64,000 bases of DNA from Oscillospiraceae bacterium (GCA_016292255.1 JAEEZZ010000139.1:171-64170); one strand, 5' to 3'; positions 14,033 to 60,703 are shown, counted from the stretch's first letter. Numbers and translations are program-made. The notes: generated from the sequence alone by a model not told the origin.

Positions 14033-14058
14033 TTCAACTGCGGAACAATAAATAATAT

Positions 14059-14098: not shown

Positions 14099-14152
14099 AG
14101 TACGGATCATTTACCGTTTACTCGTTGGGTTTTCACTTCATTTTATCTGTGT

Positions 14153-14876: not shown

Positions 14877-14922
14877 CCCCACGCGACCCGCTCCGCTGGG
14901 CTCGCGTGGGGTCCCCTTTTTC
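14877..14922 (+). terminator. Orphan terminator-like hairpin (plus orientation)
   Basis: CCCCACGCGA (14877-14886) / TCGCGTGGGG (14902-14911), followed by TCCCCTTTTTCC. No plus-strand gene ends just upstream. Confidence 0.4.
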
Positions 14923-15073
14923 CTGCGCTGACAGTTGGCAGCTTTTTCCACAACCTGTGCATATCGGGTATCCATGCTCAATGATATTTTTCCCGAAGAA
15001 ATAGCCTGCATTTTCCGGAAGATTTTGTAAAATAGAAAACGTCGCGCATTGAAGCTTACACTTTTTTCGGTGA

Positions 15074-15245
15074 GGAAATCACTGCGTGATCTCCAAGGAA
15101 TTTGAATGGGCTCTGTTCTTCGACCGGAACCAGGGCAGCTTTGGCCTGATTCCCTACAACACTGCGGATTACGACGACCTCAGATTCTCCTTCTGGCAGC
15201 CCAAGCCCTTTACCAACATCTACTTCACGGAGCTTCCCGAATGAG
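15074..15245 (+). pseudogene. GC-rich orphan 3-prime gene fragment (about 56 codons, no convincing start)
   Basis: The open frame ...VISKEFEWALFFDRNQGSFGLIPYNTADYDDLRFSFWQPKPFTNIYFTELPE ends at TGA (15243-15245). Its chromosome-like GC contrasts with the AT-rich DNA to its left. A stop lies in frame at 15071-15073. A canonical terminator follows about 40 bp downstream. Confidence 0.3.
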
Positions 15246-15283
15246 ACGGAATCGGGAATAAATTTCTATGCTATGCAAATAAA

Positions 15284-15320
15284 AGAAAATCGCCGGAAAC
15301 GGCGATTTTCTTTTATTTTC
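15284..15320 (+). terminator. Rho-independent terminator
   Basis: AGAAAATCGCCG (15284-15295), GAAA loop, CGGCGATTTTCT (15300-15311), then TTTTATTTTC. Confidence 0.65.
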
Positions 15321-15392
15321 TTCTTGAAAAAGCTTTGCTTTTGCATTTTTTTGTTATATAATAACAGAAGGATCATGATGGGAGGCAATTTC

Positions 15393-16049
15393 ATGGACTA
15401 CAAGCAGAGTGTGACGATGAATCCCTCCGGCTTTGTGGTGCTGGCGGATTTTGTGCCCAGCATCGTGCAGGAGATCCGTTATCATTCTTCCTACAATTTC
15501 ATCGGAGAGCGCATCGACGGCTACGAGGAACCCGTCGCGCTGCTGACGAAGGAGGCGGCCCGGGCGCTCAAATCCGTGGCCGGGGAGCTGATCGTCCAGG
15601 GCTACCGGCTCAAGGTGTTCGACGCCTACCGCCCGGCCTGCGCGGTGAAGCACTTCGTCCTCTGGGGCATCGAGGACCAGGACGTCCGCATGAAGCCCTA
15701 CTTCTATCCGGAGCTGGAGAAGCAGGAGCTGTTTGCAAAGGGCTATATCGCCAAGCAGTCCAGCCACAGCCGCGGCAGCGCGGTGGATCTGACGCTGCTG
15801 GATATGAAAACCGGCAAGGAAGTGGACATGGGCAGCCCCTTCGACCTGTTCAGCGAGGCCTCCCACCCGGATTACAGAGGCATCACCGACGAACAGTACG
15901 AGAACCGGATGCGCCTGCAGCGGGTGATGCTCCGCAACGGCTTTCAGCCCATCGATTGCGAGTGGTGGCACTTCGCCCTGGCCGACGAGCCCTACCCGGA
16001 CACCTACTTTGCCTTCCCGGTGTCCTCAGGATACCTTCGCAGATCCTGA
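15393..16049 (+). CDS. D-alanyl-D-alanine dipeptidase (VanX/DdpX family, peptidase M15D)
   Basis: I used the start MDYKQSV (ATG at 15393, after GGGAGG). The zinc-site motifs SSHSRGSAVDLTL and EWWHF are present, and the length is typical of VanX. Confidence 0.9.
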   Translation: MDYKQSVTMNPSGFVVLADFVPSIVQEIRYHSSYNFIGERIDGYEEPVALLTKEAARALKSVAGELIVQGYRLKVFDAYRPACAVKHFVLWGIEDQDVRMKPYFYPELEKQELFAKGYIAKQSSHSRGSAVDLTLLDMKTGKEVDMGSPFDLFSEASHPDYRGITDEQYENRMRLQRVMLRNGFQPIDCEWWHFALADEPYPDTYFAFPVSSGYLRRS

Positions 16050-40894: not shown

Positions 40895-42217
40895 TCAGTC
40901 GATCACAGTGGTGTAGTAGGTGGTGGTCGTGCCGCCGGTGGTGGTCTGCTTCCAGAAGTACAGGCCGGTGGGAGCGGAGGAGTTCACCATGAAGTACTTG
41001 TTGGAGGAGAAGGCCAGGTAGGGATAGCGGCTGCTGGCGCTGTTGGCAGCGGTCACGTTGCTGCCGCTGATGGACAGGCTCCACTGGCAGTAGCTGGAGG
41101 AGTAGCTGGAGCGGCTGTAGAGGTAGCTGCTGTAGCTGCCCAGGTAGGTGTTGGTGGAGGCGTTCCGGATGCTGTACTTGGAGCCGGTGGAGGCCACGTT
41201 GAACACGTAGGCGTCGGTGGCGCCGGTCAGCACGTCGCCGGAGCAGGTCATGCCGGTGTTGGCAATGGCCACAGCGCCGCCCGCGGAAGCGGATTCATAC
41301 TTGGTGTTGCCGGACAGGCCCTTCAGCACGTACATACTGCCGGTGTTGGTGCCGTAGGTGATGACGTAGCTGCCGGTCCAGTCGGAGGGAGCGGAGCTCA
41401 GCTTCTGGTAGCCTGTGCCGCTGCTGCCGGAGGTGGAGGTGTAGGAGTACAGAGCCCGCAGCGTCACGTTGCCGGTGACCCGGTAGGAGCCGGTGAGGAT
41501 GTTGCCGGGCTGGGTGGTGGAGTTGTTCACCGCAGCGGTGACCCAACCCAGGAAGGTGTAGCCGGCGGGAGCCGCAGCGGTGGGCAGGGTGACGGTGCTG
41601 CCCGCAGTCACGGTCTGGCTGGCGGGAGCGGTGACGCCGTTGGGCACGGAGTAGCTCACCGTGTAGGTGGTCTCAGGCTCGGGGGTGGAGGCGCTGGGGC
41701 TGGTGGTGTAGTAGGTGGTGCCGGTGGCAGTCGCCTTCCACAGCCGGAGCACGTTGGCGTTGTTGGTGCTGGCGGACCAGAAGTACTTGTTGCTGGTGGA
41801 GAAGCCGAAGTAGGGGTAGCTGCCGTTGGCGTAGTTCTTCAGCTGAGCAGCGCCGCTGGAGTTGACCGCAGGCGTCCATCTGCAGTAGGAGGAGTTGTAG
41901 CTGGTGTAGCCGGCCAGGTAGGAGCTGGAGTTCATGCCCATGTAGACGCCGGTAGAAGCGCTCTGCAGGGTGTAGTAGCTGCCGGTGGCGGCCAGGGTGA
42001 AGACGTAAGCGTCGGAGACGTTGGACAGGGTGTTGTTGGACAGGCTCATGCCGGTGGAGGCGTAGGTGGAGGCATTGTTGCTGTTTTCAATCTGGCTGCC
42101 GTTGGAGCTGGGGGTGACGCCCTTCAGCACGTACATATTGGTGGAGTTGCCGTTGGTGATGACGTAGTTGCCGGCCCAGGTGGAGGGCGTGGAGCTCACC
42201 AGCTGGTAGACGTTCTC
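40895..42217 (-). repeat. Copy 1 of a direct repeat of about 1.3 kb shared by the two protease genes (3-prime stalk region)
   Basis: Long runs are identical by eye to 44352-45653, e.g. CAGGTAGGGATAGCGGCTGCTGGCGCTGTTGGC and GATGGACAGGCTCCACTGGCAGTAGCTGGAGGAGTAGCTGGAGCGGCTGTA. The encoded modules look roughly 85-90 percent identical by eye, which I have not computed. Confidence 0.8.
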
Positions 42218-44224
42218 GCCGCCGTTGCCCTCGGTGCGGGCGTAAACGGCGTACAGCGTGACGTTGCCGCTGGGGGTGTAGGAGCCGCTCAGAACAGCGG
42301 GACGGGTGGTGGTCTCGGCGACGGTGTTGGCAGCCCAGCCCACGAAGCTGTAGCCGCTCACAGCGGTGGCCGTGGTGGGCAGCGTCACAGATTCGCCCTG
42401 GTAGCAGCTCAGGGTGTTGTAGGTGGCGCCGTTGGCCTTCAGGGTCACGGTGTACTGGGTCTTGGCGGCGAAGTTGATGCGAACCGTGCAGTCAGAGGAG
42501 GGGTTCACCGTGAAGGTGTTGCCGTTCTGGGTGACGGTGGCGGTGCCGCTGGTGACGGTGTAGCCCGCCGCGTAGTAGCCGGTCTTCGGGCTGGCGGTGA
42601 TCACGTTGCCGCTGATGGAAACGGTGCCGTAGCCGGTGTTGTTGGAGACGGCGGTCACCGTGTAGGTGGGCGCGGGCGTGGAGTTGACCTTGATGCCGAA
42701 GTATCTGAGGCTGGAGCTGGCGCCGGAGGGAGGATTGTAGACGCCGTTCACGGGCTTGACGGTGATGGAGCCGCCGCCCTTGATGGAGCAGCTGGAGCCG
42801 GTGAAGACCACGGGAGCCAGCAGGTCGTAGGGGCTCTGAACGTCATGATACTTGCTGGGATCGTAGCCGTTCTGCACCTTGAAGCCGTAGATGCCGTTGT
42901 AGTCGCTCTGGGCCGCGTTGGCGGTGACAGCGATGCGGAAATCCCGAACCAGATCGGCGCAGCTCACGCCGGTGGCGTTGGTGATGGCGGAGACGTCGCT
43001 GGAGGAGAACTTGTTGGAGATCTGTCTGTAGATGGTGTTGCCGAATCTGGAGTACAGATACTGGGCGAAGAAGGAGACCTGGGAGTAGAGCGCCAGGATA
43101 TCGCTCAGGTTGTTGTTCCAGGCGTACATGGAGTAGCCGTTGTGCAGGTTGTAGCTGGACTGATACTTGAACTCGGAGGGAGGATTCAGCCAGTCGTTGT
43201 TGTCGGCGTAGTAGTAGTTTTCCCAGGACTGGATGCGGCTGACAAGGGAGCTGCCGGGATAGCAGATCTCCTCGGCCGCGGCGGAGAAGCACTCGTTGAG
43301 CCAGGTGCTCATGCCGCTGGTGTTGGAGTAGTTGATCAGGTGCTGATACTCATGGACCATGGTGTTGTAGGTGGTGTCCATGCTCTTGTATTCAGTGCCG
43401 CTGGAATTCTTGTAGTAGACGCCGGGGTAGGTGTCGATGTTCAGGATGGGCAGGCCGTTGTTGGAGATGTCCACCTGGTAGAAGAAGCCGGCGATGTAAC
43501 CCTGGCCGGGCTGCCAGCCGTCGTTGATGTTGTAGTACAGCATATGCAGCTTGCCGTCGCCGGAGGAGCCGTTGGTGTGGTTGCCGAAGGAGGACTGCAT
43601 CAGGCTGAACTTGGAGTCGAACTCATCGGCGGCCTTCTTGGCGAAGCTGGAGTCGATGGTATCCAGGGGGTAGGTGTTGTTGGCGGAAGAGCTGGGGGTC
43701 CAGATGTAGCAGTGCTGGCCCACGTACAGGCACTTGAACTGCACGCTGCCGCTGCCGGTGGGGGAGTAGGTGGAGTAGATGTTGAAGGTCTTGGTGGAGC
43801 CAACGTTATAGGAAGCTCTGGTGGGGACGGGCTCCTTGATGACCGCGGTCTTGGCTTCCTCAGCCATCAGCGGATCCACGTCGAGCTTGAAGGGACGGGC
43901 TTCGTCCCGGGCGGCCCGGAGGAGCTCGGCGTTGGCGTTTGCGTTGGTGTTGACGGTGGTCTCAATGAGGCCGGTCATGGTGCCGGTGGAGGCGGAGCTG
44001 CTGGAGCTGGTGGAGGGGTTGTAGATCACAACGTAGTCGCCCTCGTAGCCGCCGGCGGCGTCAGAGTCTACTACGATCCCGGAGTATACGGCGCGTACCT
44101 GGGAGCTGACGGCCTCGGCGCGTTCACCCGTCTGTGCGCCCACAGCGGGAACCATCAGGCTTCCCATCAAAGCGAGGATCAAAAACAGAGAGAGCAGATG
44201 ACGAAATGTATGGTGATGCAGCAT
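40895..44224 (-). CDS. Giant secreted HExxH zinc metalloprotease (possibly M30/hyicolysin-like head) with InlB-B-like and Listeria-Bacteroides repeats and two copies of an unknown module of about 160 aa
   Basis: I used the start MLHHHTFRHLLSLFLILALMGSLMVPAVGA (ATG at 44224, AAAGGAG 7 nt upstream; the track start is a TTG inside the SD). The zinc motif TMVHEYQHLINY is at 43340-43354. The stalk has YTVTAVSNNTGYGTVS..., two Flg_new-type repeats (...GYSFVGWA..., ...GYTFLGWV...) and two W.G.YVIT...LWK modules. There is no LPXTG, SLH or choline-binding tail. Confidence 0.8.
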   Translation of the reverse strand: MLHHHTFRHLLSLFLILALMGSLMVPAVGAQTGERAEAVSSQVRAVYSGIVVDSDAAGGYEGDYVVIYNPSTSSSSSASTGTMTGLIETTVNTNANANAELLRAARDEARPFKLDVDPLMAEEAKTAVIKEPVPTRASYNVGSTKTFNIYSTYSPTGSGSVQFKCLYVGQHCYIWTPSSSANNTYPLDTIDSSFAKKAADEFDSKFSLMQSSFGNHTNGSSGDGKLHMLYYNINDGWQPGQGYIAGFFYQVDISNNGLPILNIDTYPGVYYKNSSGTEYKSMDTTYNTMVHEYQHLINYSNTSGMSTWLNECFSAAAEEICYPGSSLVSRIQSWENYYYADNNDWLNPPSEFKYQSSYNLHNGYSMYAWNNNLSDILALYSQVSFFAQYLYSRFGNTIYRQISNKFSSSDVSAITNATGVSCADLVRDFRIAVTANAAQSDYNGIYGFKVQNGYDPSKYHDVQSPYDLLAPVVFTGSSCSIKGGGSITVKPVNGVYNPPSGASSSLRYFGIKVNSTPAPTYTVTAVSNNTGYGTVSISGNVITASPKTGYYAAGYTVTSGTATVTQNGNTFTVNPSSDCTVRINFAAKTQYTVTLKANGATYNTLSCYQGESVTLPTTATAVSGYSFVGWAANTVAETTTRPAVLSGSYTPSGNVTLYAVYARTEGNGGENVYQLVSSTPSTWAGNYVITNGNSTNMYVLKGVTPSSNGSQIENSNNASTYASTGMSLSNNTLSNVSDAYVFTLAATGSYYTLQSASTGVYMGMNSSSYLAGYTSYNSSYCRWTPAVNSSGAAQLKNYANGSYPYFGFSTSNKYFWSASTNNANVLRLWKATATGTTYYTTSPSASTPEPETTYTVSYSVPNGVTAPASQTVTAGSTVTLPTAAAPAGYTFLGWVTAAVNNSTTQPGNILTGSYRVTGNVTLRALYSYTSTSGSSGTGYQKLSSAPSDWTGSYVITYGTNTGSMYVLKGLSGNTKYESASAGGAVAIANTGMTCSGDVLTGATDAYVFNVASTGSKYSIRNASTNTYLGSYSSYLYSRSSYSSSYCQWSLSISGSNVTAANSASSRYPYLAFSSNKYFMVNSSAPTGLYFWKQTTTGGTTTTYYTTVID

Positions 44225-44303
44225 ATAGATACTCCTTTTCAAATTTCAGATTGGTTTTTCTATTGAATTGCGCTGCGTAGGACGTTTCGTTCGTCTGGGA
44301 AAG

Positions 44304-44351: not shown

Positions 44352-45653
44352 TCAGGTGGTGTAGTAGGTGGTGGAGCTGCCGCCGGTGGTCTGCTTCCAG
44401 AAGTACAGGCCGGTGGGCACAGAGGAGCTCACCATGAAGTAGTTGCTGGAGGCGAAGGCCAGGTAGGGATAGCGGCTGCTGGCGCTGTTGGCGGCGGTCA
44501 CGTTGCCGCTGCTGATGGACAGGCTCCACTGGCAGTAGCTGGAGGAGTAGCTGGAGCGGCTGTACAGGTAGGAGTTGTAGCTGCCCAGGTAGGTGCCGGT
44601 GGACTTGTTGCGGATGGTGTACTTGGAGCCGGTGGAGGCGATCTCGAACACGTAGGCGTCGGTGACGTCAGTGAGCTTGCCGTCGGCGTAGGTCATGCCG
44701 GTGTTGCTGTACAGGACAGCGCCGCCCGCGGAGGCGGACTCATACTTGGTGTTGCCGGACAGGCCCTTCAGCATATAGAGGCTGCTGGTGTTGGTGCCGT
44801 AGGTGATGACGTAGTTGCCGGCCCAATCGGTGGGCGCGGAATCCAGAAGCTCATAGGCGGTGCCTTCGCCGGAGGTGGAGGTGTAGGAATACAGAGCCCG
44901 CAGCGTCACGTTGCCGGTGACCTTGTAGGAGCCGGTGAGGATGTTGCCGGGCTGCGTGGTGGAGTTGTTCACCGCGGCGGTGACCCAGCCCAGGAAGGTG
45001 TAGCCGGCGGGAGCGGCGGCAGTGGGCAGGGTGATGTAGCTGTTGGCGGCAGCCGTCTGGCTGGCGGGAGCAGTGATACCGCTGGGAACGGAGAAGCTGA
45101 CGGTGTAGTTGGTTACGGGAGCGGCAGAGCCGATCTCGGTGGTGTAGTAGGTGGTGCCGCCGGCGGTCTGCTTCCACAGACGGAGCACGTTGGCGTTGTT
45201 GGTGCTGGCAGACCAGAAGTACTTGCTGCTGGTGTTGAAGCCGAAGTACGGATAGCTGCCGTTGGCGTAGTTCTTCAGCTGAGCAGCGCCGCTGGAGTTG
45301 ACAGCGGGGGTCCATCTGCAGTAGCTGGAGTTGTAGCTGGTGTAGCCGGCCAGGTAGGAGCTGGAGTTCATGCCCATGTAGGTGCCGGTGGCAGCGCTCT
45401 TCACGGTGTAGTAGCTGCCGGTGGCATCCAGGGTGAAGACGTAGGCGTCCGCCACGTTGGTCAGAGCGTTGTTGGACAGGCTCATGCCGGTGGAGGCGTA
45501 AGCGGTGGCATTGGAGCTGGCCTCGATCTCAGCGCCGTTGGAGCTGGGGGTCACGCCCGTCAGCACGTACATACTGGTGGAGTTGCCGTTGGTGATGACG
45601 TAGTTGCCGGCCCAGGAGGAAGGCGTGGAGCTCACCAGCTGGTAGGCGGAAGC
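44352..45653 (-). repeat. Copy 2 of the direct repeat of about 1.3 kb shared by the two protease genes
   Basis: See copy 1. The off-frame shadow ORFs of the two regions in the track are also near-identical (MEPVHQRQQRDRCQQRQQPLSLPG vs MEPVHQQRQRDRRQQRQQPLSLPG). Confidence 0.8.
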
Positions 45654-48600
45654 GCCGCCCTCGGTGTAGGAGTAGAGCGCCTTGAGGGTGATGTTGGCGG
45701 TGGGCTTGTAGGAGCCGGTCAGAACGGTGGGCAGGGTGGTGGCGTTGTTGACCGTGGTGCTGACCCAGCCCAGGAAGGTGTAACCCGCGGGAGCCGCGGC
45801 GGTGGGCAGGGTGACGGAGTTGCCGGAAGCCACAGTCTGGCTGGCGGGAGCGGTCACGCCCTCGGGCACGGAGAAGCTCACCGTGTAGTAGGTGGTAGCG
45901 CCGGTGGCGGGCAGGGTGGTGTGCTCGCGGCTCAGCTCGGCGTTGCAGCGGGTGCAGTAGACCACGGTGTCGTAGCCGCCGTCGGTGGTGGCAGTGGGAG
46001 CAACGTAGTTCTCCTGGACGGAGGCGCCGGGGTTGTGGCCAAGAGCGGCCACGGTCTTGTGGCTGCGGCTCATTTCCTCACCGCAGGTGGCGCAGTAGAC
46101 GACCTCGTCATAGCTGCCGGCAGCGGTGCAGGTGGGGGCGACCACGTTCTCCTGAACGGCGGCCGCGGCGGTGTGGGTGTGGGTCTGGGCGCTGGGGTTG
46201 GTGTTGTAGTAGACGGTGGAGGCGGTGGTCTGCTTCCACAGCTGGGTCTTGTTGGTGGTGTAGCCGGTGTTGACCACGAAGTACTTGTTGGAGCCGACGA
46301 CCAGGTAGGTGTACTGGGTGCTGCCCACGTTGGAGATCTTCATGCAGATGTTATAGGTATCATACTCGATATTCCAGTCGGAGTAGCTGGACTGATAGCT
46401 CTGCATGTTGTGCAGGTAGGTGCTCTGGGTGCCGATCCAGTAGTTGGTGGGGCTCTTGATGGTGTAGGTGGAGCCGTTCTTCGCGATGGTGAACACGTAG
46501 TTGGCGGGGACGTTCTTCAGAACGGTGCCGTCCAGGGTCATGCCGGTGCTGGCGTAGGCCACGGAGGCGCCGCAGGTCGAATTCTCCAGACGCTGGTCGG
46601 AGCTGACGCCCTTGAAGGCGATCAGGCTCGTGTCCTTGCCGCTGGTGATCACGTACTTGCCGGTCCAATCGGTGATGGGCTCGGCCACGATCTCGTAGAT
46701 GATCTCGCTGCTGCCCTCGGTGCGGGTGTACAGGGCGTAGAGGGTGGCGTTGGCGGTGACGGTGTACTCCGCGCCGGGCGCGTAGTAGCTGGGCTTGGTG
46801 GTGGTCTCAGCGACCTGGGAGGCAGCCCAACCCACGAAGCTGTAGCCGTTGACGGCGGTGGCAGTGGTGGGCAGGGTGATGGTGTCGTTGATATAGGCGG
46901 TCTGGCTGCCGGCGGAAGCGCCGCAGGCCATGAAGTTGACGGTCAGCTGGGGCTTCACCGCAAAGATGACCTTGACGGTGCAGTCGGAGGAAGGATTGAC
47001 CGTGATGATGTTGCCGTTGATGGAAACCGTGGCGGTGCCGGAGGTCACCTGGGCGTCGGAGACATAGTAGCCTGCCTTGGGCGTGGCGGTGATCTTGTTT
47101 CCGTTGACGGAAACCGTACCGTAGGAGGTGTTGTTGGAGACGGCGGTCACAGTGTAGCTGGCGTCGTCGGTGTAAGCCTTGATGCGGAAGTCGCCGTTGT
47201 TGGGCACGTCAGTCCAGGAGCCGTTGGCTTCCTTGTAGAAGGAAGTGTTGCCGCGGTTGGCGTGGGTCCACTTGCACCAGGAGATGCTGGCGGTGGCGTC
47301 GTAGGGGATGTGGACGTACTTGCCGTCGTCGGGATCGGCGGAGGGGGTGCTCAGGGTGAAGACCACGGCAAACTTATCGCCGGCGGAGAGGGCGACGGGG
47401 TTGTTCAGCTCGATGGTGTAGTAGCCGGCGTAGGGCATCGTGCCGGTCTGGCTGGTCATCAGCGTGCCGGAGCTGGGGTTGGTGGCGCTGGTGGGGTTCT
47501 TGTAGATGCTCAGGGTGTAGGAGGTCGCCTCGTCCCAGGGAGAGATGGCGACAGCCTTCAGCGTCTCGGAGCCGTTGGCGGTGAAGATGTTGGCAACCTG
47601 GCAGTTGTTGTTCATGGACTGGTAGCTGGCCAGGTTGGTGGTGCCGTCGTACTGATAGCAGTTGGCGTAGTTGCCAACGTTGCTCATCTTGTAGAAGTAG
47701 ACGGAGTCGTTGAGAGAAGCGGAGTCCTCGTAGGAGAGGTAGAAGTAACCGCTCTTGCCCCAGGAGGTGCCCCAGGAGTTCTTGATGATCCAGGCGCCGT
47801 TGCTGCTGGGTCCGTAGGAGGACTTGAAGTTGGACTTGGAGTAGTTGTCGTCCCAGCCGACGACGGTGACGGCATGGTTGCCGTACTGGTAGTTGTTGGA
47901 GCCGTAGGCAGCGCTCTGCTTGAAGCAGTAGCCGCCGGTGCTGGAATTATAATAGGAGTCGTTGTGGTAGTAGCTGATGGTGCCCGCGCCGTACTCCATG
48001 ATGGCTTCCTTGATCGCCTGCATATTGGAGACGGGGATCCACTCAACGCTTTCTACGTGAGCAACGTCATAGTCGTAAGCATATTGAGAGTTGAGGCCGG
48101 AGGTGGAAACATTGCTGTATTTCAGCGCGGAGGTCTTCTCGGAGGCGGGGCCTTCCCAGCGCATCAGCGTGTAGGTGGCCATGGCGCCGTTGCCGCCCAT
48201 ATCCAGGTAGGAGCTGGCGCCGGAAGCGGAGAGCACAGGGCTGGAGCTGTCGCCGGAGAGCATGCCCAGCTTATCGTAAGCATTGGTGTAGTTGAACCAA
48301 GCAAGATGAGATTCAGAAAGATCCATGCTGGTGGTGGCCGCAGCGCCGGTATCGTTGTTGATGATGCCGTGCTTGATCATGTAGGCCTCGACGGAGGCCA
48401 TGGTGCCGAAGGCCCAGCAGGTGCCGTAGGGGTTCTGGTTTTTGACGGAGGTGATGTAGTTGTAGTTGCGGGAGTCATAGCTGGAAGGGAGGGTCGCACG
48501 GGTGCCGTTGGTTTCGTCCGCACCGCTTAGATAGCGTTCTGTCAGGGCGCGGCTGCCGTGGTAGATCATGGGGATGTAACCGGAAATGATCTCTGCGGGT

Positions 48601-48713
48601 TCGTTTGCTTTGCCCTGACCGATCCCGACTGCGAATGCCGCTGTCGGAAGCAGGCCAATGATCAGGAGTACGGTCAAACAGATTGCGAGTAGCTTTTTGC
48701 CGGTTCGTCTCAT
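44352..48713 (-). CDS. Giant secreted papain-like (C1A) cysteine protease with the same repeat stalk, three copies of the unknown module of about 160 aa, and a duplicated Cys-rich insert
   Basis: I used the start MRRTGKKLLAICLTVLLIIGLLPTAAFA (ATG at 48713, GAGGAG upstream). Catalytic motifs are NQNPYGTCWAFG (Cys codon 48417-48419), NHAVTVVGWDD and NSWGTSWG. The stalk is as in the neighbouring gene, and the protein ends ...YFWKQTTGGSSTTYYTT with no recognisable anchor. Confidence 0.85.
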   Translation of the reverse strand: MRRTGKKLLAICLTVLLIIGLLPTAAFAVGIGQGKANEPAEIISGYIPMIYHGSRALTERYLSGADETNGTRATLPSSYDSRNYNYITSVKNQNPYGTCWAFGTMASVEAYMIKHGIINNDTGAAATTSMDLSESHLAWFNYTNAYDKLGMLSGDSSSPVLSASGASSYLDMGGNGAMATYTLMRWEGPASEKTSALKYSNVSTSGLNSQYAYDYDVAHVESVEWIPVSNMQAIKEAIMEYGAGTISYYHNDSYYNSSTGGYCFKQSAAYGSNNYQYGNHAVTVVGWDDNYSKSNFKSSYGPSSNGAWIIKNSWGTSWGKSGYFYLSYEDSASLNDSVYFYKMSNVGNYANCYQYDGTTNLASYQSMNNNCQVANIFTANGSETLKAVAISPWDEATSYTLSIYKNPTSATNPSSGTLMTSQTGTMPYAGYYTIELNNPVALSAGDKFAVVFTLSTPSADPDDGKYVHIPYDATASISWCKWTHANRGNTSFYKEANGSWTDVPNNGDFRIKAYTDDASYTVTAVSNNTSYGTVSVNGNKITATPKAGYYVSDAQVTSGTATVSINGNIITVNPSSDCTVKVIFAVKPQLTVNFMACGASAGSQTAYINDTITLPTTATAVNGYSFVGWAASQVAETTTKPSYYAPGAEYTVTANATLYALYTRTEGSSEIIYEIVAEPITDWTGKYVITSGKDTSLIAFKGVSSDQRLENSTCGASVAYASTGMTLDGTVLKNVPANYVFTIAKNGSTYTIKSPTNYWIGTQSTYLHNMQSYQSSYSDWNIEYDTYNICMKISNVGSTQYTYLVVGSNKYFVVNTGYTTNKTQLWKQTTASTVYYNTNPSAQTHTHTAAAAVQENVVAPTCTAAGSYDEVVYCATCGEEMSRSHKTVAALGHNPGASVQENYVAPTATTDGGYDTVVYCTRCNAELSREHTTLPATGATTYYTVSFSVPEGVTAPASQTVASGNSVTLPTAAAPAGYTFLGWVSTTVNNATTLPTVLTGSYKPTANITLKALYSYTEGGASAYQLVSSTPSSWAGNYVITNGNSTSMYVLTGVTPSSNGAEIEASSNATAYASTGMSLSNNALTNVADAYVFTLDATGSYYTVKSAATGTYMGMNSSSYLAGYTSYNSSYCRWTPAVNSSGAAQLKNYANGSYPYFGFNTSSKYFWSASTNNANVLRLWKQTAGGTTYYTTEIGSAAPVTNYTVSFSVPSGITAPASQTAAANSYITLPTAAAPAGYTFLGWVTAAVNNSTTQPGNILTGSYKVTGNVTLRALYSYTSTSGEGTAYELLDSAPTDWAGNYVITYGTNTSSLYMLKGLSGNTKYESASAGGAVLYSNTGMTYADGKLTDVTDAYVFEIASTGSKYTIRNKSTGTYLGSYNSYLYSRSSYSSSYCQWSLSISSGNVTAANSASSRYPYLAFASSNYFMVSSSVPTGLYFWKQTTGGSSTTYYTT

Positions 48714-49049
48714 GGGGTAGGTCTCCTCTTTCATAAAAATTTTTGCTGTGCGTCTTCCGGACGCCAGCGTAGCAATCATAGCACTAAGATCGAAAAAAGT
48801 CCACAGATTATACATAAATTTTCGTAAAATATTCAGTATTTTTTTGTTCAATATGCCGAATATTAAAAAACGGAGCAGAGTTTTAAAAATGTTTTAACGC
48901 TATGTGTTTTTGTTGTGGAGACAAGGAAAAAATGTGTTTTTTGTGTGAAGATTTCAGAGCTGCAAAAATGAATAGAAACAGGAAGCCGCAGCTTCCGAGG
49001 ATCCAAAAAATGAATACTGTTTTTTTGCCTGCGGAGCCCCCATGGCCGC

Positions 49050-54112: not shown

Positions 54113-55195
54113 TCAGCCGGCGATGGGGCTTTGGGAGATCCCGGGCTCCAGCGCCAGATCCGGATTCATCGCCCGAGCCAGCCAGCAGATGAAGACGCTG
54201 CGGGGCAGGGGATCGGAGGGACGGAACAGGAAATCGCTGCCCCGTTCCAGAATGCCCTTGGAGCAGCCCCAGTTGACAGCCTTGTAGTAATACTGATCGG
54301 GGCCGACGTCGGTATATGCCTGGGGCAGGCCCGTGGCGTCGCCCTTCATGGCCTTGAAGAGCACGGCGGCCACCTGGTCCCGGGTCATGGAATTGTTGGG
54401 ATTGAACAGGCCTTCCCCCGAGCCGGAGACAAGATGGATGCTGTAGGCCCAGAGGACAGCGGGATAGCAGCTGTCGGAGGCGGTAATATCCGTGAAGGGC
54501 ATTTCCGTCTGCAGGGGAGCCGGTCTGCCGAAGACCTTCCAAAGCAGCTCCATGACCTCGCCCCGGGTGAGGATCTGATCGCCGTTCAGCCGATCGCCGG
54601 ATATGACGCCGTTGGTGTAGGCCCAGAGGTACTCGTTGTAGCAGGGGTCGTCCTCGCTCACGTCCAGGAACGGATTGCCGGGGGCGGCCTCGGTGGCCGG
54701 GGCGGTAGGCGCTTCCGTGGCAGTGGCGACAGTCACAGGGGGCTGGGTAGCCGGTACGGTGGCGATGGTTTCCGGAGCGGTGGGCGCTTCCGTGGCATTG
54801 GCCGTGGCTGTGGTTGGCGCAGGCTCCTGCTTGTCGTTGAGGAAGCCGGGCCACACAAAGCAGGCCACAGCTCCCAGCCCGGCCAGAAGCAGAACGACCA
54901 GGCCTATGATCAGACCGGCCTTGCTCTTTTTCGGCGCCGGCTGCTGCCAGTTCTGATTCGGCTGCTTCCAGCCCTGATCCTGCTGCCAGCCCTGATCCTG
55001 CTGCTGCCAGCCTTGATCCTGCTGCTGCCAGCCTTGATCCTGCTGATAAGAATATTGGTTCTGGAATTGCTCCTGGGGAGCTTGGTACGCCTCATCCTGC
55101 GAGGCGGACTCCGTGTTGATCTCCTGCCCGCATTTCGGGCAGAATCTGCCGAAATCCGGAAGCGGATTGCCGCAGTTGGGACAGAAGCTTGCCAT
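54113..55195 (-). CDS. Zinc-ribbon, Gln/Trp-repeat, TM, Thr/Ala/Pro linker, 3x SLH-like domain protein
   Basis: I used the start MASFCPNCGNPLPDFGRFCPKCG (ATG at 55195, AAGGAGGG upstream). QDQGW repeats are followed by a TM (GLIIGLVVLLLAGLGAVACFVW) and three repeats of the type F.D(V/I)....(C)Y..(V)LWAY...(I/V)SG...F.P....TR.(E/Q)V..(L)(L/F)(W/K). Confidence 0.75.
   Translation of the reverse strand: MASFCPNCGNPLPDFGRFCPKCGQEINTESASQDEAYQAPQEQFQNQYSYQQDQGWQQQDQGWQQQDQGWQQDQGWKQPNQNWQQPAPKKSKAGLIIGLVVLLLAGLGAVACFVWPGFLNDKQEPAPTTATANATEAPTAPETIATVPATQPPVTVATATEAPTAPATEAAPGNPFLDVSEDDPCYNEYLWAYTNGVISGDRLNGDQILTRGEVMELLWKVFGRPAPLQTEMPFTDITASDSCYPAVLWAYSIHLVSGSGEGLFNPNNSMTRDQVAAVLFKAMKGDATGLPQAYTDVGPDQYYYKAVNWGCSKGILERGSDFLFRPSDPLPRSVFICWLARAMNPDLALEPGISQSPIAG
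54968..55045 (-). repeat. In-frame 18/21-nt tandem repeats (encode the QDQGWQQ(Q) units)
   Basis: On the plus strand: CCAGCCCTGATCCTGCTG / CCAGCCCTGATCCTGCTGCTG / CCAGCCTTGATCCTGCTGCTG / CCAGCCTTGATCCTGCTG. Confidence 0.85.
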
Positions 55196-55334: not shown

Positions 55335-55343
55335 TGATATAAT
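55335..55343 (+). promoter_or_regulatory. Extended -10 element upstream of the large SLH protein gene
   Basis: TGATATAAT matches TGnTATAAT. It lies about 45 nt upstream of the start codon in an AT-rich divergent intergenic region. Confidence 0.4.
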
Positions 55344-55389
55344 GAAACCGGGATTACTCGCGATGACAGGATAAAAAGGAGGTAAACTC

Positions 55390-58300
55390 GTGATGAAACG
55401 GAAGCTGATAACATTTCTGGTGATTCTTTGTATGCTGGCCTCACTGGTTCCTGCAATTCCTGCGGCGCAGGCGGCGGGGTCAAATATGATTCGTGTCTGC
55501 TATGACACCGGCTTTGGCTGTGTGTTCTGGTCAAAGGGCAACACGAATCCCACGGACAGCGCAGACGACTTTGCCTGCGACAACGAGCCGTTCTCTGTGA
55601 ACAGCACCACGCAGATCCGCCTGTGGATCGATCCCACCCGGGCAGTAGATCGCTGGCGCTGGGAGGAGGACAACGAGCTGGTGTTCATGGAGCCCATTTA
55701 TGCGGAGGATCGCAACATCTACGTCCGCGTGCGCTATCCCATGAGCAACGGCGACTGGTACGACGAATTGGTCGTGGATAAGGGCGTGGCCGTCAAAACC
55801 GGCTACACCTTCAAAAACAACATTCTGAGCTTCAAGGCGACGGAGGCCGACGGATCGGTGGACGTCGACATCTACTGGACGGATTCCGACTTTGCCTACA
55901 TGAGCTTCTGGCCCGAGGACGGCGAGATCATGGTAGACTACGGCTGGAACGGCGTGGAGCAACCGGTGCTGGCGGAGGAAGCCGCCGTGACCCGGGAGAT
56001 GTCCCAGCCGGATCGCTGCCGGCGTCGGGTGATCGTGCCCGCTTCCACCCAGAGCGTGAGCTTCAGCTGGAACAGCCATCTGCAGCGCATCTGGGGTGAC
56101 AACGTCAACCACGACGATCAGTGGGGCGATCTGACCCATCTTCCCGACAACGAGTTCACCCTCTACCTGGACGGCACCGACGGCGGGGAGCACCCCAGAA
56201 ACTGCTACAACATCGGCTTTGACTTTGCCCAGGACTGGAACTATCTCTTCTCCGTGGACTACGACATGAACGGCGGCCTGGTGTTCCAGACCGTGGGCGG
56301 CGGCACTCCCACTGCCACGGCGGACTGCTTCCTGCCCCGGCGGGGAGACGAGCGGGAGTCCTGGCCCTCTGAGCGCAGCTTTGCCGGCGCCGACGGAGCG
56401 GAGACCATCCGCCTGCTCTTTGACGAAACCAAGGCGATCGATTGGGAGGCCTGGGACAGAGAAGAGCCGGAGCTGCAATTCGTGGAGCCCTGGCACAACG
56501 ACGACCGGGTCATTTCCGTGATCGCCCGCTACAACGACGACGACGGCTGGAAAGAGGAAGCTCTGGTGGAGTATGGCGTGCCGGTGACAGGGGTCAGCTT
56601 TGCGGACAATGTCCTGAGCTATACCCCCGCAAGCGGCTTCGACGTGGAATTTTCCGTCTTCTGGACGCGGGACGACTATGAATTCTACCACTTCGTCGGC
56701 ACCGAGGAAAAGCCGGTGATGGTAGAGGTGAACTGGTGGGGAGACGGAGCCGTCAATCTGACGGACCCCATCGACCCGGCGGATACGATGATCCGCGACG
56801 GCCGTATGCGGATCCGGGTGGCGGAGGACGTGGAAAGCCTCACCTTCACCTGGAACGAGGACGACGAGCTGCGGCAAATCAATGTGGACGGCCTGGGCGA
56901 GGGCGGCCAGTGGCTCAGCATTATGCACCCCGAAGGCAACAGCTATACCCTGCAGCTGGACCAGACCTGGGACGACGGCCAACCGAAGGACTGGTACAAC
57001 ATCCAGTTCGAGTTTGAGGGCGGCGGCGAGTCCATGGCCATGGCCTTCTATGACCAGAACAAGGGCAGCATCTTCTGGGCGCTGGGGGACGATACCCCCG
57101 CGGCTGACGCCGCACACTACCTGAACTTCGGCTTTGACGGCGCGATCTGCTTCAAGCAGGACGGCCAGCTCCTGCCCATCCATCTGCTCTTTGACGGCAG
57201 CAAGGGCCTGGATTTTGACTACTACGATCAGCATAACGGCGCGATTCGCTTTGTGGATTCCACCGTGCCGGAGGAAGACCGGATCGTGGGCGTCTACGCG
57301 GTGAGCAGCTGGTGCGAGGGCCCTGTGTTCTGGGACGGCGAAGTCACCGAAAACGGCGCAGCGCAGGGAGTCAGCTATGAAAACGGCGTCCTGAGCTTCC
57401 AGCCCACAAACAGCAGCGACCTGATGCTCCACGTCTATTGGACCCAGGCGGACGCGGACTACGACGGCTTCCAGGGCACAGAGGAATGCCCGGTGATCGT
57501 GGAGTACCGCTGGTGGAACAACGGGGAGATCCCCATTCCCGAGGGCGTCTCTGAGGAGAATTATACCGCCTATTCGGGCGGCGGCATGGCCCGGGTCCGT
57601 GTGCCCCTGGAGCAGGAAAGCATCACCTTTACCTGGGCGGAGGAGTACGGCGTCCACCGGATCGGCTATTCCGTCCGCAGCGAGGAGGGGGAGGATTGGA
57701 TCGACTTTGAAGTGGATCAGTCCCAGCCCCACAGCTTCACCCTGGAGCTGAACCAGACGGAGATGTTCGACGGCCACGTGGAGCCCTGCACCTGGTACCA
57801 GGTGGAGTTTGAATTCTTTGAAGACAGCAGATACCAGCTCTGGATCAACTGGCGGGAGTCCGAGGGCAACGTCTACTTCGGCCTGAACGAGGCGCCTCCC
57901 CCGGTGGAGGACAGCGCCACCTACGATCTGGAGCGCTACTACGCCCACAGCAACGGCCAAGCCCCGATTTTTGCCACTCTGGATGAGAACGGCGACCCCG
58001 AGATCGGCAAGGTCTACCTGCGGCTGGATCCCACCCACAGCGTCAACTACTTCAACGATGCGCTCACCATGTACGATCTGGGCGCCTGGGAGGGCTACTC
58101 CCCCACGATCTATATGGAATACCCCCTGGAGGGAGCGCTGGGAGAATGGTTCGAGGGCCCCGTGGTGGTGGACGGCCGGGCCGTGTCCGACTTCGTCACC
58201 TTCGAAGACGACGTGCTTTCCTTCACCCCCATCAACGAGCAGCCGGTCATCATCCATATCCTCTGGAGCCATGAGGACGAGGCCTTCTGGGACTTCGATA

Positions 58301-59193
58301 CCACCCCGGAGAAGCCTGTGATGGTGGAGCTGATGCTGGGCGCTCGCGTCCCGGTGCAGCTTCCCGCGGATCTTCCCGCCGAGGACGTCCATATCTGGCA
58401 CGCGGCGGAGCACGACTACGTCCGGATCCGCGTCCCCGCCGACCGGGAGAGCGTGAAGATCACCTGGCCGAGAGTCGGCATCGTGGCCCTGATCGAGGAG
58501 GACGGCGCCGGAGAGAACGGCGAGCCCCTGCGTGTCAACTTCCCCACGGAGCGCGCCTATGAGATCCGCTTGAATCAGCAGAATTGGGACGGCAGCCCCC
58601 GGGAGTTCTACTCCGCCGTGTTCTGGGGCTATGGCTGGCAGGAGAATCCCTTCGAGGACGTAGCGGATAACGCGTGGTATCACGAGGCAGTCTGCTTCGC
58701 GGTGAGCATGGGCATCACCTCCGGCACCTCTCCCACGACCTTCTCGCCGGATAATACCCTGAAGCGCTGCGAGTTTATCACCTTCCTCTGGGCCGCCGCG
58801 GGCCGTCCGGAGCCGACCATTACCGAATGTCCCTTCGAGGACGTAGCGGACAACGCCTGGTATCGGAGGCCTGTCCTCTGGGCGCTGGAGAACCACATTA
58901 CCAGCGGCACCTCGGCCACCACCTTCGGCTCTGACGATCCCTGCACCCGCGCCCAGGTGATGATGCTTCTGTGGCGGGTCGGCGGCTCCCAGGAGCCCGA
59001 AAGCCAGGACTGCCCCTTTGACGACGTTAAGGACGGCATCTGGTACAGGAAGGCAGTCTGCTGGGCAGTGGAGCAGGGGATCACCGCCGGCACCACAGCC
59101 AACACCTTCAGCCCGGACGCCTCCTGCACCCGCGCCATGGCGGTGATGTTCCTCTTCCGTCAGACGCTGAACACCTGGCGCGACGGCGAATAA
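55390..59193 (+). CDS. Large acidic Trp-rich cell-wall protein: signal peptide, four tandem copies of an unknown module of about 265 aa, and three C-terminal SLH domains
   Basis: 1267-aa ORF. The start is GTG at 55390 or ATG at 55393, after AAGGAGG. The signal peptide is KLITFLVILCMLASLVPAIPAAQA. Modules are approximately 55486-56235, 56236-57027, 57028-57825 and 57826-58638. The SLH region (58645-59169) has three repeats of F(E/D)DV.D..WY...V.WA...GIT(S/A)GT....F.P. Confidence 0.85.
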   Translation: MMKRKLITFLVILCMLASLVPAIPAAQAAGSNMIRVCYDTGFGCVFWSKGNTNPTDSADDFACDNEPFSVNSTTQIRLWIDPTRAVDRWRWEEDNELVFMEPIYAEDRNIYVRVRYPMSNGDWYDELVVDKGVAVKTGYTFKNNILSFKATEADGSVDVDIYWTDSDFAYMSFWPEDGEIMVDYGWNGVEQPVLAEEAAVTREMSQPDRCRRRVIVPASTQSVSFSWNSHLQRIWGDNVNHDDQWGDLTHLPDNEFTLYLDGTDGGEHPRNCYNIGFDFAQDWNYLFSVDYDMNGGLVFQTVGGGTPTATADCFLPRRGDERESWPSERSFAGADGAETIRLLFDETKAIDWEAWDREEPELQFVEPWHNDDRVISVIARYNDDDGWKEEALVEYGVPVTGVSFADNVLSYTPASGFDVEFSVFWTRDDYEFYHFVGTEEKPVMVEVNWWGDGAVNLTDPIDPADTMIRDGRMRIRVAEDVESLTFTWNEDDELRQINVDGLGEGGQWLSIMHPEGNSYTLQLDQTWDDGQPKDWYNIQFEFEGGGESMAMAFYDQNKGSIFWALGDDTPAADAAHYLNFGFDGAICFKQDGQLLPIHLLFDGSKGLDFDYYDQHNGAIRFVDSTVPEEDRIVGVYAVSSWCEGPVFWDGEVTENGAAQGVSYENGVLSFQPTNSSDLMLHVYWTQADADYDGFQGTEECPVIVEYRWWNNGEIPIPEGVSEENYTAYSGGGMARVRVPLEQESITFTWAEEYGVHRIGYSVRSEEGEDWIDFEVDQSQPHSFTLELNQTEMFDGHVEPCTWYQVEFEFFEDSRYQLWINWRESEGNVYFGLNEAPPPVEDSATYDLERYYAHSNGQAPIFATLDENGDPEIGKVYLRLDPTHSVNYFNDALTMYDLGAWEGYSPTIYMEYPLEGALGEWFEGPVVVDGRAVSDFVTFEDDVLSFTPINEQPVIIHILWSHEDEAFWDFDTTPEKPVMVELMLGARVPVQLPADLPAEDVHIWHAAEHDYVRIRVPADRESVKITWPRVGIVALIEEDGAGENGEPLRVNFPTERAYEIRLNQQNWDGSPREFYSAVFWGYGWQENPFEDVADNAWYHEAVCFAVSMGITSGTSPTTFSPDNTLKRCEFITFLWAAAGRPEPTITECPFEDVADNAWYRRPVLWALENHITSGTSATTFGSDDPCTRAQVMMLLWRVGGSQEPESQDCPFDDVKDGIWYRKAVCWAVEQGITAGTTANTFSPDASCTRAMAVMFLFRQTLNTWRDGE

Positions 59194-59229
59194 ACGCCGC
59201 GCTGAAACGGCAGTAACTTGAAACCTAAC

Positions 59230-59267
59230 AAAACCCCCAAAAATCAGCTTTGATTTTTGGGGGTTTT
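59230..59267 (+). terminator. Rho-independent terminator
   Basis: AAAACCCCCAAAAATCA-GCTT-TGATTTTTGGGGGTTTT, a 17-bp perfect stem. Confidence 0.85.
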
Positions 59268-59344
59268 GAACATGGAAAAGCAATAAAAAATTTTGTATAA
59301 TCTTACTATTATCCTTGGAATACGGAACGAAAGGGGAGTGCGCC

Positions 59345-60703
59345 ATGTATATCCTTGCCAATGGCAGACTGATCACCCGGGATCCTGCGCTGGGCTATCT
59401 CAAGGACGGCGGCGTCGTCATCCGGGGCCGGAGCATTCTGGATCGGGGCACCACTACCGCGCTGCGAGCCAAATATCCCGAGGCGGAGTTCCTGGACGCC
59501 CGGGGCGGCGTCATCATGCCCGCCTTTATCAACGCTCACACCCATATCTATTCCGCCCTGGCCCGGGGCCTTTCCATCAAGGGCTGCAACGCTTCGAATT
59601 TCTATGAGGTGCTGGACGGCCTGTGGTGGGCCATCGACCGGAAGCTGACGCTGGAGGGCACGAAGGCCTCCGCCGACGCGCTGATGATCGACTGCATCAA
59701 GCAGGGCGTCACCACGATCTTTGATCACCACGCCTCCTACGGGGAGATCCCCGGCAGTCTGCATACCATCGCGGCGTCCGCCAGGCGCTTCGGCCTCCGG
59801 GCCTGCCTCTGCTATGAGGTCTCCGACCGGGACGGGGAGGAGAAAGCCCTCCAGGCGGTGCAGGAGAACGCCGACTTTATCAGCGAATGTGAGCGGGAGA
59901 AGGATCCCATGCTGGCTGCCATGTTCGGCGGCCACGCCCTGTTCACCATCTCCGATAAGACCTTCGACCGGATGGTGGCCGCCAACAACGGCAGGACCGG
60001 CTACCATATCCACGTCTCCGAGGGGATGAACGACGTGTACGACAGCCTGCAAAGCTATGGCCGCCGTCCGGTGCAGCGCCTCCACGACCACGGCATCCTG
60101 GGCCCCAAGACCATTCTGGGCCACTGCATCCACGTCAATTCCGCCGAGATCGAGCTGATCCAAAACACCGATACCATGGTGGTCAACAACCCCGAGTCCA
60201 ACATGGGCAACGCCGTGGGCACCTGCCCGGTGCTCCAGCTCTACAAAAACGGCGTGCTTCTGGGCCTGGGCACCGACGCCTATACCAACGATATGCTGGA
60301 GTCCGTCAAGGCTGCCCTCTGCGCCCAGCGGCAGAACGCCTGCCTGCCCAACGTGGGCTGGTGCGAGGTCACGGATATGCTCTTCCGCAACAACGCCAAA
60401 ATCGGGGCCAGGTATTTCCCGGACGAGCTGGGCGTGCTGAAGCCGGGGGCTGCCGCCGACGTGATCGTCATGGACTACAAGCCCTTCACCCCCTTCTCCG
60501 ACGCCAACATCGACGGCCACATCCTCTTCGGCATGACGGGCCGCCAGTGCCAGACCACCATTGCCGCAGGTCGGATCCTGATGAAGGACCGGGAGCTGGT
60601 AGGGATCGACGAGGAGGCCGAGAACGCCCATATCCTCGAAGCGTCCCGCAAGCTCTGGGGGGATCTGAACGGCTGCGCCTACAACGCGGAGGGCGAACGG
60701 TAG
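59345..60703 (+). CDS. ssnA: SsnA-type amidohydrolase (chlorohydrolase/aminohydrolase family)
   Basis: I used the start MYILANGRLITRD (ATG at 59345). PAFINAHTHIYSALARG...DGLWWAID...IFDHHAS...HVSEG...LGHCIH...LGTDA are motifs of the amidohydrolase superfamily. The gene is adjacent to ygfK, as in E. coli ygfK-ssnA. Confidence 0.8.
   Translation: MYILANGRLITRDPALGYLKDGGVVIRGRSILDRGTTTALRAKYPEAEFLDARGGVIMPAFINAHTHIYSALARGLSIKGCNASNFYEVLDGLWWAIDRKLTLEGTKASADALMIDCIKQGVTTIFDHHASYGEIPGSLHTIAASARRFGLRACLCYEVSDRDGEEKALQAVQENADFISECEREKDPMLAAMFGGHALFTISDKTFDRMVAANNGRTGYHIHVSEGMNDVYDSLQSYGRRPVQRLHDHGILGPKTILGHCIHVNSAEIELIQNTDTMVVNNPESNMGNAVGTCPVLQLYKNGVLLGLGTDAYTNDMLESVKAALCAQRQNACLPNVGWCEVTDMLFRNNAKIGARYFPDELGVLKPGAAADVIVMDYKPFTPFSDANIDGHILFGMTGRQCQTTIAAGRILMKDRELVGIDEEAENAHILEASRKLWGDLNGCAYNAEGER

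Follow-up and report, generated by a model that had tools for sequence, protein, structure and literature searches.

A family of two-domain beta modules on an SLH-anchored wall protein from a ruminant-gut Oscillospiraceae bacterium

What does a gut bacterium build when it strings four copies of an acidic, tryptophan-rich module in front of a cell wall anchor? The question is raised by one gene in a 64,000-nucleotide stretch of DNA from Oscillospiraceae bacterium (GCA_016292255.1, JAEEZZ010000139.1:171-64170; the whole stretch is called the window here). A preliminary description of this DNA, made from the sequence alone, had reported a quadruplicated module of about 265 aa that resembled no recognised family and ended in three SLH domains. 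Oscillospiraceae abound in the rumen as uncultured bacteria whose envelopes have gone essentially unstudied. The architecture of the gene product is secure: it is a signal-peptide-bearing, SLH-anchored chain of eight predicted beta domains, arranged as four A-B didomains. The A-B module defines a family that is undescribed, absent from Pfam and NCBIfam and, in its larger half, without a relative in the Protein Data Bank (PDB). This family is well bounded and can be folded with confidence, and all that is exposed of a 141-kDa wall-anchored protein consists of it. As to function, we give about an even chance to the view that the protein is a non-enzymatic, wall-anchored surface fibre serving as a spacer associated with the surface layer (S-layer) or as an adhesin; its wall binding through the SLH repeats, extended rod shape, adhesive or spacer role and lack of enzymatic activity are all predicted properties.

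The array and its anchor

The open reading frame (ORF; Table 1) was cut into four pieces, one per module (M1 to M4), and each pair was compared by BLASTP. All six pairs match, at 24.5-33.5% identity over 233-255 aligned columns, with E-values of 6e-33 for M2-M3, 1e-30 for M1-M2, 3e-21 for M2-M4, 9e-18 for M3-M4, 6e-13 for M1-M3 and 5e-8 for M1-M4. A hidden Markov model (HMM) built on the copies detects four full-length units and no others, at aa 31-283, 284-546, 547-813 and 814-1083 (253, 263, 267 and 270 aa, respectively); the units abut without linkers, and nothing else in the window matches the module HMM. These results bear out the four tandem copies first placed at 55486-58638, which corresponds to aa 33-1083 of the ORF. 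The module region is acidic and rich in tryptophan, as had been proposed: its isoelectric point (pI) is 4.1, Asp and Glu number 199 against 65 Lys and Arg (just 15 of the latter are Lys), Trp makes up 4.2% and the aromatic residues Phe, Trp and Tyr together 14.3%. The mature protein has a mass of ~141 kDa and contains 17 Cys. The reported absence of long nucleotide repeats among the modules also holds, with matches confined to 20-39 nt at 63-85% identity; the three SLH units, for their part, form a 146-nt nucleotide repeat family of 64-71% identity. Less uniform are the landmark motifs, said to recur in every module: they are literal in M2, and in M3 except for the FVEP-like segment (FVDS there), and they appear only in degenerate versions in M1 and M4.

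The C-terminal anchor is equally clear. Pfam PF00395 matches three stretches of the protein (E 5e-25; 87.6 bits, cut-off 20.8), and an SLH HMM of our own finds three units, in agreement with the three C-terminal SLH domains of the preliminary description. SLH2 and SLH3 show TRAQ and TRAM, and SLH1 shows LKRCE; the role of the TRAE-type SLH motif is reportedly the one described for SpaA and Sap. SLH repeats bind pyruvylated secondary wall polymer. At the other end of the protein, inspection by eye reveals the features of an N-terminal secretion signal (KRK, a hydrophobic core and AQA/A), from which secretion and the site of cleavage are predicted.

A second ORF, of 1281 aa, overlaps the module gene on the reverse strand (55531..59376, minus). 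It was rejected as a gene and is taken to be a shadow ORF, lacking a signal peptide, domains and homologues, all three of which the plus-strand product has; shadow ORFs are typical of genes with a high G+C content at third codon positions. The module gene was further compared with an 81%-identical orthologue (L001 10001-13804) for its rates of nonsynonymous (dN) and synonymous (dS) substitution. The dN/dS ratio is 0.32 for the gene as a whole; the SLH segment by itself has 0.53, and the eight sub-domains of the modules range over 0.16-0.47. Such values identify a real gene under purifying selection.

Table 1. Features of the module gene and its immediate surroundings (positions in the window)
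Feature	Position	Strand	Basis or remark
Divergent neighbour: zinc ribbon, Q/W-rich repeats (QQDQGWQQ...), PT-rich linker, SLH	54113..55195	-	Pfam Zn_Ribbon_1 and SLH; no functional link shown
Promoter and gene segment missing from L010	55257..59225	+	blastn, L010 against window
Extended -10 element TGATATAAT (TGnTATAAT), AT-rich intergenic region	55335..55343	+	Read from sequence; predicted function
Ribosome-binding site AAGGAGG	55376..55382	+	7 nt before GTG 55390, 10 nt before ATG 55393
Whole ORF, 1267 aa	55390..59193	+	Signal peptide, then four A-B modules and three SLH repeats
Sec-type signal peptide, aa 1-28 (MMKRKLITFLVILCMLASLVPAIPAAQA / AG)	55390..55473	+	Basic N-terminus, hydrophobic core, AQA-A site; predicted
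Module 1 (A1 55480-55911, B1 55912-56238)	55480..56238	+	HMM envelope; most distal unit
Module 2 (A2 56239-56697, B2 56698-57027)	56239..57027	+	HMM envelope; unit used for modelling
Module 3 (A3 57028-57474, B3 57475-57828)	57028..57828	+	HMM envelope
Module 4 (A4 57829-58299, B4 58300-58638)	57829..58638	+	HMM envelope; anchor-proximal type
HAAEH (HxxEH) in WHAAEHDY, aa 1004-1008, B4 sub-domain	58399..58413	+	Sequence
Three SLH repeats, ~aa 1087-1145, 1147-1203, 1208-1259	58639..59190	+	Pfam PF00395; wall anchor
Palindromic hairpin, 17-18 bp, G+C/A+T, 36 nt past the stop codon	59229..59268		Likely bidirectional terminator

Two predicted domains per module

The module had first been described as a single unit. 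We read each copy instead as a didomain, composed of A (~150 aa) and B (~110 aa) with the split near residue 153, because of the strand pattern of the M2 model and because separate HMMs match A and B. Modelled with AlphaFold2 on an alignment of 37 non-redundant family modules, which also served for the conservation counts, M2 (A+B) is predicted to be all-beta (mean pLDDT 95.1, pTM 0.87), with nine to ten strands and two short helices in residues 1-152 (block A) and eight strands in residues 155-263 (block B). Domain A modelled alone reaches a pLDDT of 96.8 and a pTM of 0.91, and the pTM of 0.87 for the complete module implies a fixed orientation of A and B relative to each other. In the core family the separate A and B HMMs trace a strict A-B alternation; in distant proteins they detect B alone, or the C-terminal half of A alone. 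The idea that A and B are duplicates of one another was discarded, hhalign assigning it a probability of 2%.

Conservation across the 37 modules points to a scaffold. Columns conserved in at least 75% of them are occupied by G, W, L, F, Y, V and P, and the polar ones are just D62, D146 and S200; since these columns are nearly all non-polar, Gly or Pro, they would represent the signature of a scaffold rather than of an active site. The invariant aromatics W142, W205, F152, Y253 and F257 show the alternating pattern of core residues.

Structure comparison yielded little. A Foldseek search with one module, proposed as a check in the preliminary description, found no match to the A-B model in the PDB at E <= 1e-3. 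The best PDB matches are to two-domain Ig-like pilins (3gld, E 2e-3; 7f7y, E 4e-3; TM 0.22), other weak ones are to FN3/Ig receptor arrays (TM ~0.2), and in BFVD two matches fall below 1e-3, again at TM ~0.2, to repeat-rich phage proteins. For domain A alone the best PDB match has an E-value of 0.1 and none exceeds TM 0.34. Because A has no PDB neighbour, the weak Ig/FN3/pilin signal seems to come from B, which is apparently the source of the only fold matches of this kind that the module produces. That domain A has a new fold is a possibility and not a result, 'no relative' meaning here none in PDB or BFVD at the sensitivity of Foldseek.

The pilin matches, non-significant as they are, direct attention to the Spy0128 and PitB pilins and CnaB stalks, in which elongated two-sandwich units likewise build surface fibres. 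The differences are considerable: the TM value is just 0.22, and the module protein is anchored by SLH repeats, not by sortase, and has no LPXTG motif. The best-conserved Lys column of the module is occupied in 12 of the 37 copies; with no conserved Lys, intramolecular isopeptide bonds are not expected. An isopeptide-linked pilin or CnaB stalk was therefore rejected, on account of the missing Lys, the missing LPXTG and the SLH C-terminus.

Sequence searches support the earlier statement that no family is recognisable. In Pfam and NCBIfam only the SLH part of the protein is matched, the 37 modules scanned singly against Pfam at E <= 1 show no consistent family, and PDB sequence-profile searches with the module return noise only. 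Candidates that surfaced were examined and set aside. The fn3_PAP family (PF17808) matched 3 of the 37 modules at 16 bits or less, against a gathering threshold of 33 bits, and in the whole protein P0016 it reached 22 bits; all these matches, at 15-22 bits, cover no more than profile positions 65-110. Sub-threshold Pfam matches to fn3_PAP, WIF and PA14 were not reproduced across modules, and the PDB profile match to 1vpv (E 0.74) is spurious, being aligned to a His-tag. The literature on SLH proteins in Oscillospiraceae and in rumen metaproteomes yielded nothing on the module family.

Cohesins deserved consideration on grounds of layout. OlpB, SdbA and Orf2p of Acetivibrio thermocellus are reportedly C-terminally SLH-anchored scaffoldins or surface proteins of plant-fibre-degrading Clostridia, in which tandem beta-sandwich modules of ~150 aa at the N-terminus precede three SLH repeats, and the module protein resembles them in this order. 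Unlike the cohesin scaffoldins, it has no match to PF00963, either in the whole protein or in the 37 modules, and no cohesin chain stands among the Foldseek matches listed, despite the many cohesins in the PDB.

Could the A-B unit be a new family of carbohydrate-binding module (CBM), with the array providing multivalent attachment to plant fibre or another rumen glycan? The very high aromatic content and the ruminant-gut host would suit such a role, and all-beta domains of 150 and 110 aa have sizes typical of CBMs. Gene neighbourhoods add to this: one homologue lies beside SLH-anchored enzymes of the glycoside hydrolase (GH) families GH43 and GH115, which debranch xylan, another lies near GH3, and the distant relative P0036 carries a dockerin. 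Against these stand the absence of any sequence or fold match to a CBM (no Pfam CBM in the 37 modules; a spurious PDB profile match to the CBM4 1cx1 at E 1.1; nothing significant in Foldseek, where the CBM41 2j43 has an E-value of 0.17), invariant aromatics that follow the alternation of core residues, a negative charge so extreme as to be atypical of binders of neutral plant glycans, and a Pfam scan of 37 family proteins in which no GH is fused to the modules. We consider a CBM family decidedly unlikely.

A small family with changing arrays

How widely is this module distributed? The homologue search that had been suggested as the means of defining the family was performed in two ways. A word-indexed search of 5.8 billion proteins returned 15 clusters, all of them with SLH except for one truncated entry; the sole named member among them is from an Oscillospiraceae metagenome-assembled genome (MAG). 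An exhaustive HMMER search with the module profile against 1.84 billion representatives at 50% identity returned 72 proteins at E <= 1e-3, of which 23 reach E <= 1e-30. The module family is thus very small. Its named HMMER members come from MAGs, of Oscillospiraceae and, for one distant relative, of Lachnospiraceae. The closest genomes were sought with the syntenic Na/Pi transporter gene as a probe and are MAGs as well, with cattle, buffalo, goat and sheep gut compartments as their named sources; more distant reference genomes come from horse faeces and pig. Modules are present in just 2 of the 42 reference loci recovered with this probe, namely those of the GTDB representatives L011 and L015; RGIG8286 and Tb.RUG.182 are the reference genomes with homologues. 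In full-module proteins the SLH repeats, where present, are always C-terminal; most have them, and the apparent exceptions are fragmentary or unscanned.

The arrays of homologues contain 4, 5, 6 or 9 modules, and two further homologue genes, which are split, hold about 8 to 9. Repeat genes of this type are systematically mis-assembled and mis-called in MAGs. The homologous genes at L006 5128-12209 and L009 4876-11390 are broken, the former by a run of N and the latter by overlapping frames, and for L009 the gene caller annotated an opposite-strand shadow ORF of 870 aa in place of the module gene.

The preliminary description had interpreted the four copies as an old internal quadruplication. 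Old it is: the module types are positional, with A1-B1 first and A4-B4 last beside the SLH repeats in most members, and homologues with as little as 33% identity still show each of the four types in its own place. The quadruplication is not frozen, however, as the arrays range from 4 to ~9 units and their A and B parts recombine. Arrays have grown by the addition of internal A2/A3-B2 units, and P0004 contains the shuffled units A1+B2 and A2+B1, from which it follows that the A and B sub-domains recombine. The A-B unit would accordingly behave as a reusable building block whose number and order are altered by recombination. Comparison with P0002 and P0005 gave the impression that distal modules evolve faster, but comparison with P0006 and P0013 did not, and no such claim is made.

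Recombination also seems to have acted within the gene of the window. In the comparison with the L001 orthologue, dS forms a mosaic of ~0.6-0.86 in modules 1-2 and the SLH region and 0.1-0.2 across B3-A4-B4, a pattern that probably reflects recent intragenic recombination. P0002 has a different sequence type in its second and third SLH repeats, and together with the dS mosaic this suggests that exchange may have occurred between lineages.

The domains that accompany the modules in relatives are all ones of surface-display contexts. P0023 combines them with BspA-type leucine-rich repeats (LRR), Big_2 and SLH, P0016 and P0022 with a Bmp/PnrA substrate-binding domain and SLH, and P0042 with Flg_new and SLH; the partner of the distant relative P0036 is the dockerin mentioned above, and that of P0047 is YDG. 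Big_2, the Flg_new/Listeria-Bacteroides repeat and the BspA LRR resemble the module in that they co-occur with it in these relatives and in that the BFVD fold matches are to repeat proteins of this sort; they differ from it in that no module reaches their Pfam models and in unit size, a two-domain unit of 260 aa as against 65-90 aa.

In P0016 (aa 2347-2660) and P0022 (aa 1052-1331) the Bmp/PnrA domain sits between the modules and the SLH anchor; a wall-tethered binding protein of the Bmp type is unusual. This placement is the starting point for the proposal that the array is an accessory for solute capture, which together with Bmp/PnrA-type proteins would concentrate nucleosides or related ligands at the wall. 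It is joined by the position of the P0009 gene, which follows a co-oriented Bmp-ABC transporter operon (L004 2859-7815) after 186 bp, and by the genes for an SsnA-like amidohydrolase and a YgfK-like oxidoreductase that follow the module gene in the window and that presumably belong to purine metabolism. The window protein itself, however, has no Bmp domain in Pfam, the P0022 locus has no transporter genes, the contexts of the other homologues are unrelated, and the amidohydrolase gene, beyond the hairpin and with a promoter-like site of its own, persists where the module gene has been lost. Solute capture is consequently the least credible of the roles considered here, and we judge it very improbable.

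The locus and the proposed surface fibre

The module gene looks monocistronic, in view of its own extended -10 element and ribosome-binding site, the hairpin downstream and a separate promoter-like site ahead of the downstream amidohydrolase gene. The extended -10 was missed by a consensus promoter scan on account of its poor -35 region. Homologues begin with MKRKL or MMKRKL. Rfam detects no RNA family in the window. Downstream lie the gene for the SsnA-like amidohydrolase and then that for the YgfK-like oxidoreductase (Fer4_20/Pyr_redox_2), and L001, L006 and L008 share with the window the block that runs from the Zn-ribbon/SLH gene through the module and SsnA-like amidohydrolase genes to the Fer4_20/Pyr_redox_2 gene; other homologues have unrelated neighbourhoods.

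The closest reference genome, L010, whose Na/Pi gene is 90% identical, cleanly lacks the module gene and its promoter at this slot. Its sequence aligns up to 12140 with the window up to 55256 and from 12201 with the window from 59226, and it retains both the Zn-ribbon/SLH gene and the amidohydrolase gene, 242 bp apart. Since the slot is occupied in more distant relatives, the absence from L010 represents a loss, which means that at least one lineage can do without the gene. The hairpin, the promoter-like site ahead of the amidohydrolase gene and the persistence of that gene after loss of the module gene led us to reject an operon of the two; an obligate pairing with the Zn-ribbon-SLH neighbour was rejected because L010 keeps that neighbour too. 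The hairpin is also kept at the empty site (CAAAACCTCCAAAAATCAGACCTGTTTTTTGGAGGTTTTG) and is therefore either part of the backbone or a survivor of the deletion.

The codon bias of the module gene is ordinary. Its effective number of codons (Nc) is 35.0, as against 33.4-38.2 in ordinary neighbours, and two large secreted proteins encoded nearby show a stronger bias (Nc ~29). Given the absence from the L010 slot and an Nc equal to that of ordinary neighbours, the gene would not be essential and is probably not hyper-expressed. The suggestion that it encodes a major surface protein finds no backing here.

What, then, might the protein do? Under the surface-fibre reading, it would be secreted and held non-covalently on the cell wall by its three C-terminal SLH repeats, and its exposed part would be a linker-less chain of eight beta domains devoid of a catalytic signature. 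Such a chain could stand out from the cell wall of this uncultured Oscillospiraceae bacterium of the ruminant gut as a beta-rod, very acidic and rich in aromatic residues. This reading draws on the architecture, the all-beta model of M2 with its weak matches to Ig/FN3/pilin arrays, purifying selection on the gene, the ruminant-gut habitat with the GH43 and GH115 enzymes beside one homologue, the lack of catalytic-type conservation, the variation in copy number and the shuffling of units, the surface-display partners, the stand-alone gene, its dispensability and its ordinary codon bias.

The main rival is that the protein is the S-layer subunit itself, its eight beta domains self-assembling, possibly in a calcium-dependent manner, as a two-dimensional lattice tethered through the SLH repeats. 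The protein is acidic and has a suitable mass, its gene is apparently monocistronic with a strong ribosome-binding site, an extended -10 and a hairpin, and conserved acidic positions (D62, D146, and YD and EDR motifs) could bind Ca2+. S-layer proteins usually contain few or no Cys, and the 17 Cys of the mature protein sit poorly with the proposal. The S-layer proteins of Bacillaceae combine SLH repeats with 6-8 Ig-like domains as beads on a string, a design that is convergent in unrelated lineages (PMC10624894), and the module protein is of the same architecture class, sharing with Sap, EA1, SbsB and SbsC a signal peptide, a triple SLH anchor, an acidic array of beta-sandwich beads and the lack of an enzymatic domain (PMC10624894). 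The SLH repeats followed by consecutive assembly domains that mark an S-layer protein are present here as eight predicted beta domains in reversed order: the anchor lies at the C-terminus here and at the N-terminus in those SLH S-layer proteins whose structures have been characterised (PMC10624894). The protein differs from its Bacillaceae counterparts also in its repeating A-B didomain of variable copy number and in the absence of sequence or Foldseek similarity, with no Sap, EA1 or SbsB chain among the Foldseek matches listed and nothing at E <= 1e-3. Arrays of 4 to 9 modules, with Bmp or LRR domains in some relatives, are awkward for a conserved lattice; the deletion of the gene from L010, flanks intact, and the ordinary codon bias (Nc 35 vs 29 in the two secreted neighbours) argue mildly in the same direction. 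None of these points (anchor position, module number, loss, codon bias) is decisive, and on balance we regard an S-layer subunit as unlikely.

Several considerations weigh against the surface-fibre reading. The first is the very design just discussed, as SLH repeats with 6-8 beta-sandwich beads are also how true S-layer subunits are built (PMC10624894). Foldseek, moreover, is weak on beta-sandwiches, and aromatics that may be exposed beside the core-facing ones (YW141-142, WW197-198 and W252) could form a glycan-binding platform, in which case the module would serve for binding and not as a spacer. Lastly, a conserved HxxEH motif in B4 is left unexplained by a non-enzymatic spacer or adhesin. 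Of the 16 closest family members, 15 have the motif, within WHAAEHDY, exactly once, at a fixed 255-262 aa from the C-terminus, and no module type other than B4 contains it. It may bind a metal or serve as a point of contact to the SLH/wall region. Its identity as an inverzincin (M16), a peptidase type in which HxxEH sits in an alpha/beta fold and a Glu ligand follows downstream, was rejected, as the motif lies in a predicted all-beta B-type sub-domain and no M16 Pfam match exists. Such observations leave room for a bolder proposal, in which domain A would be a new beta fold and the (A-B)n arrays lineage-specific building blocks of the envelope in uncultured rumen Oscillospiraceae, either as the subunit of a new kind of S-layer or coat or as a new multivalent glycan- or cation-binding family; in both cases the anchor-proximal B4 would carry the HxxEH as a metal site. 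We offer this tentatively and think it unlikely.

The kind of protein, SLH-anchored beads on a string, is familiar; the repeat family itself is new. It constitutes a target for family curation and structural genomics and could serve as a marker of these lineages. Should the modules prove to bind fibre or to self-assemble, they would bear on the attachment to feed particles or on shielding; if they do neither, the protein is one more surface protein of the beads-on-a-string kind, and no general open question hinges on it.

Other features of the surroundings are of separate interest. In the divergent neighbour (54113-55195, minus), the zinc ribbon would be cytoplasmic and a transmembrane helix is probable, so that the product would be a membrane protein reaching the wall polymer; its relatives have a C-terminus 190 aa longer. 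At two unrelated loci, an MBOAT protein and its AlgX/DHHW-type partner adjoin module genes, and at a third locus MBOAT lies beside an unannotated gene of 334 aa (the MBOAT-bearing sites are L009 2210-4738, L053 12141-14749 and L004 17357-19828). We take this pair to resemble PatA/PatB, which in Bacillus presumably O-acetylate the SLH-bound secondary wall polymer, and it may be related to SLH anchoring.

The two large secreted proteins of the window, encoded at 40895-44242 and 44352-48851 (both minus), are very large, rich in S/T/N/Y and share internal repeats; one carries a papain-type C1 peptidase, Lectin_like and Flg_new repeats, the other Flg_new repeats. In their region the GC skew is strong, ~+0.26 on the plus strand, and the codon bias (Nc ~29) is stronger than in its surroundings. 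At 10001-16000 the G+C content falls to 0.44-0.51, compared with ~0.60-0.65 in most of the window, and this segment may be acquired DNA.

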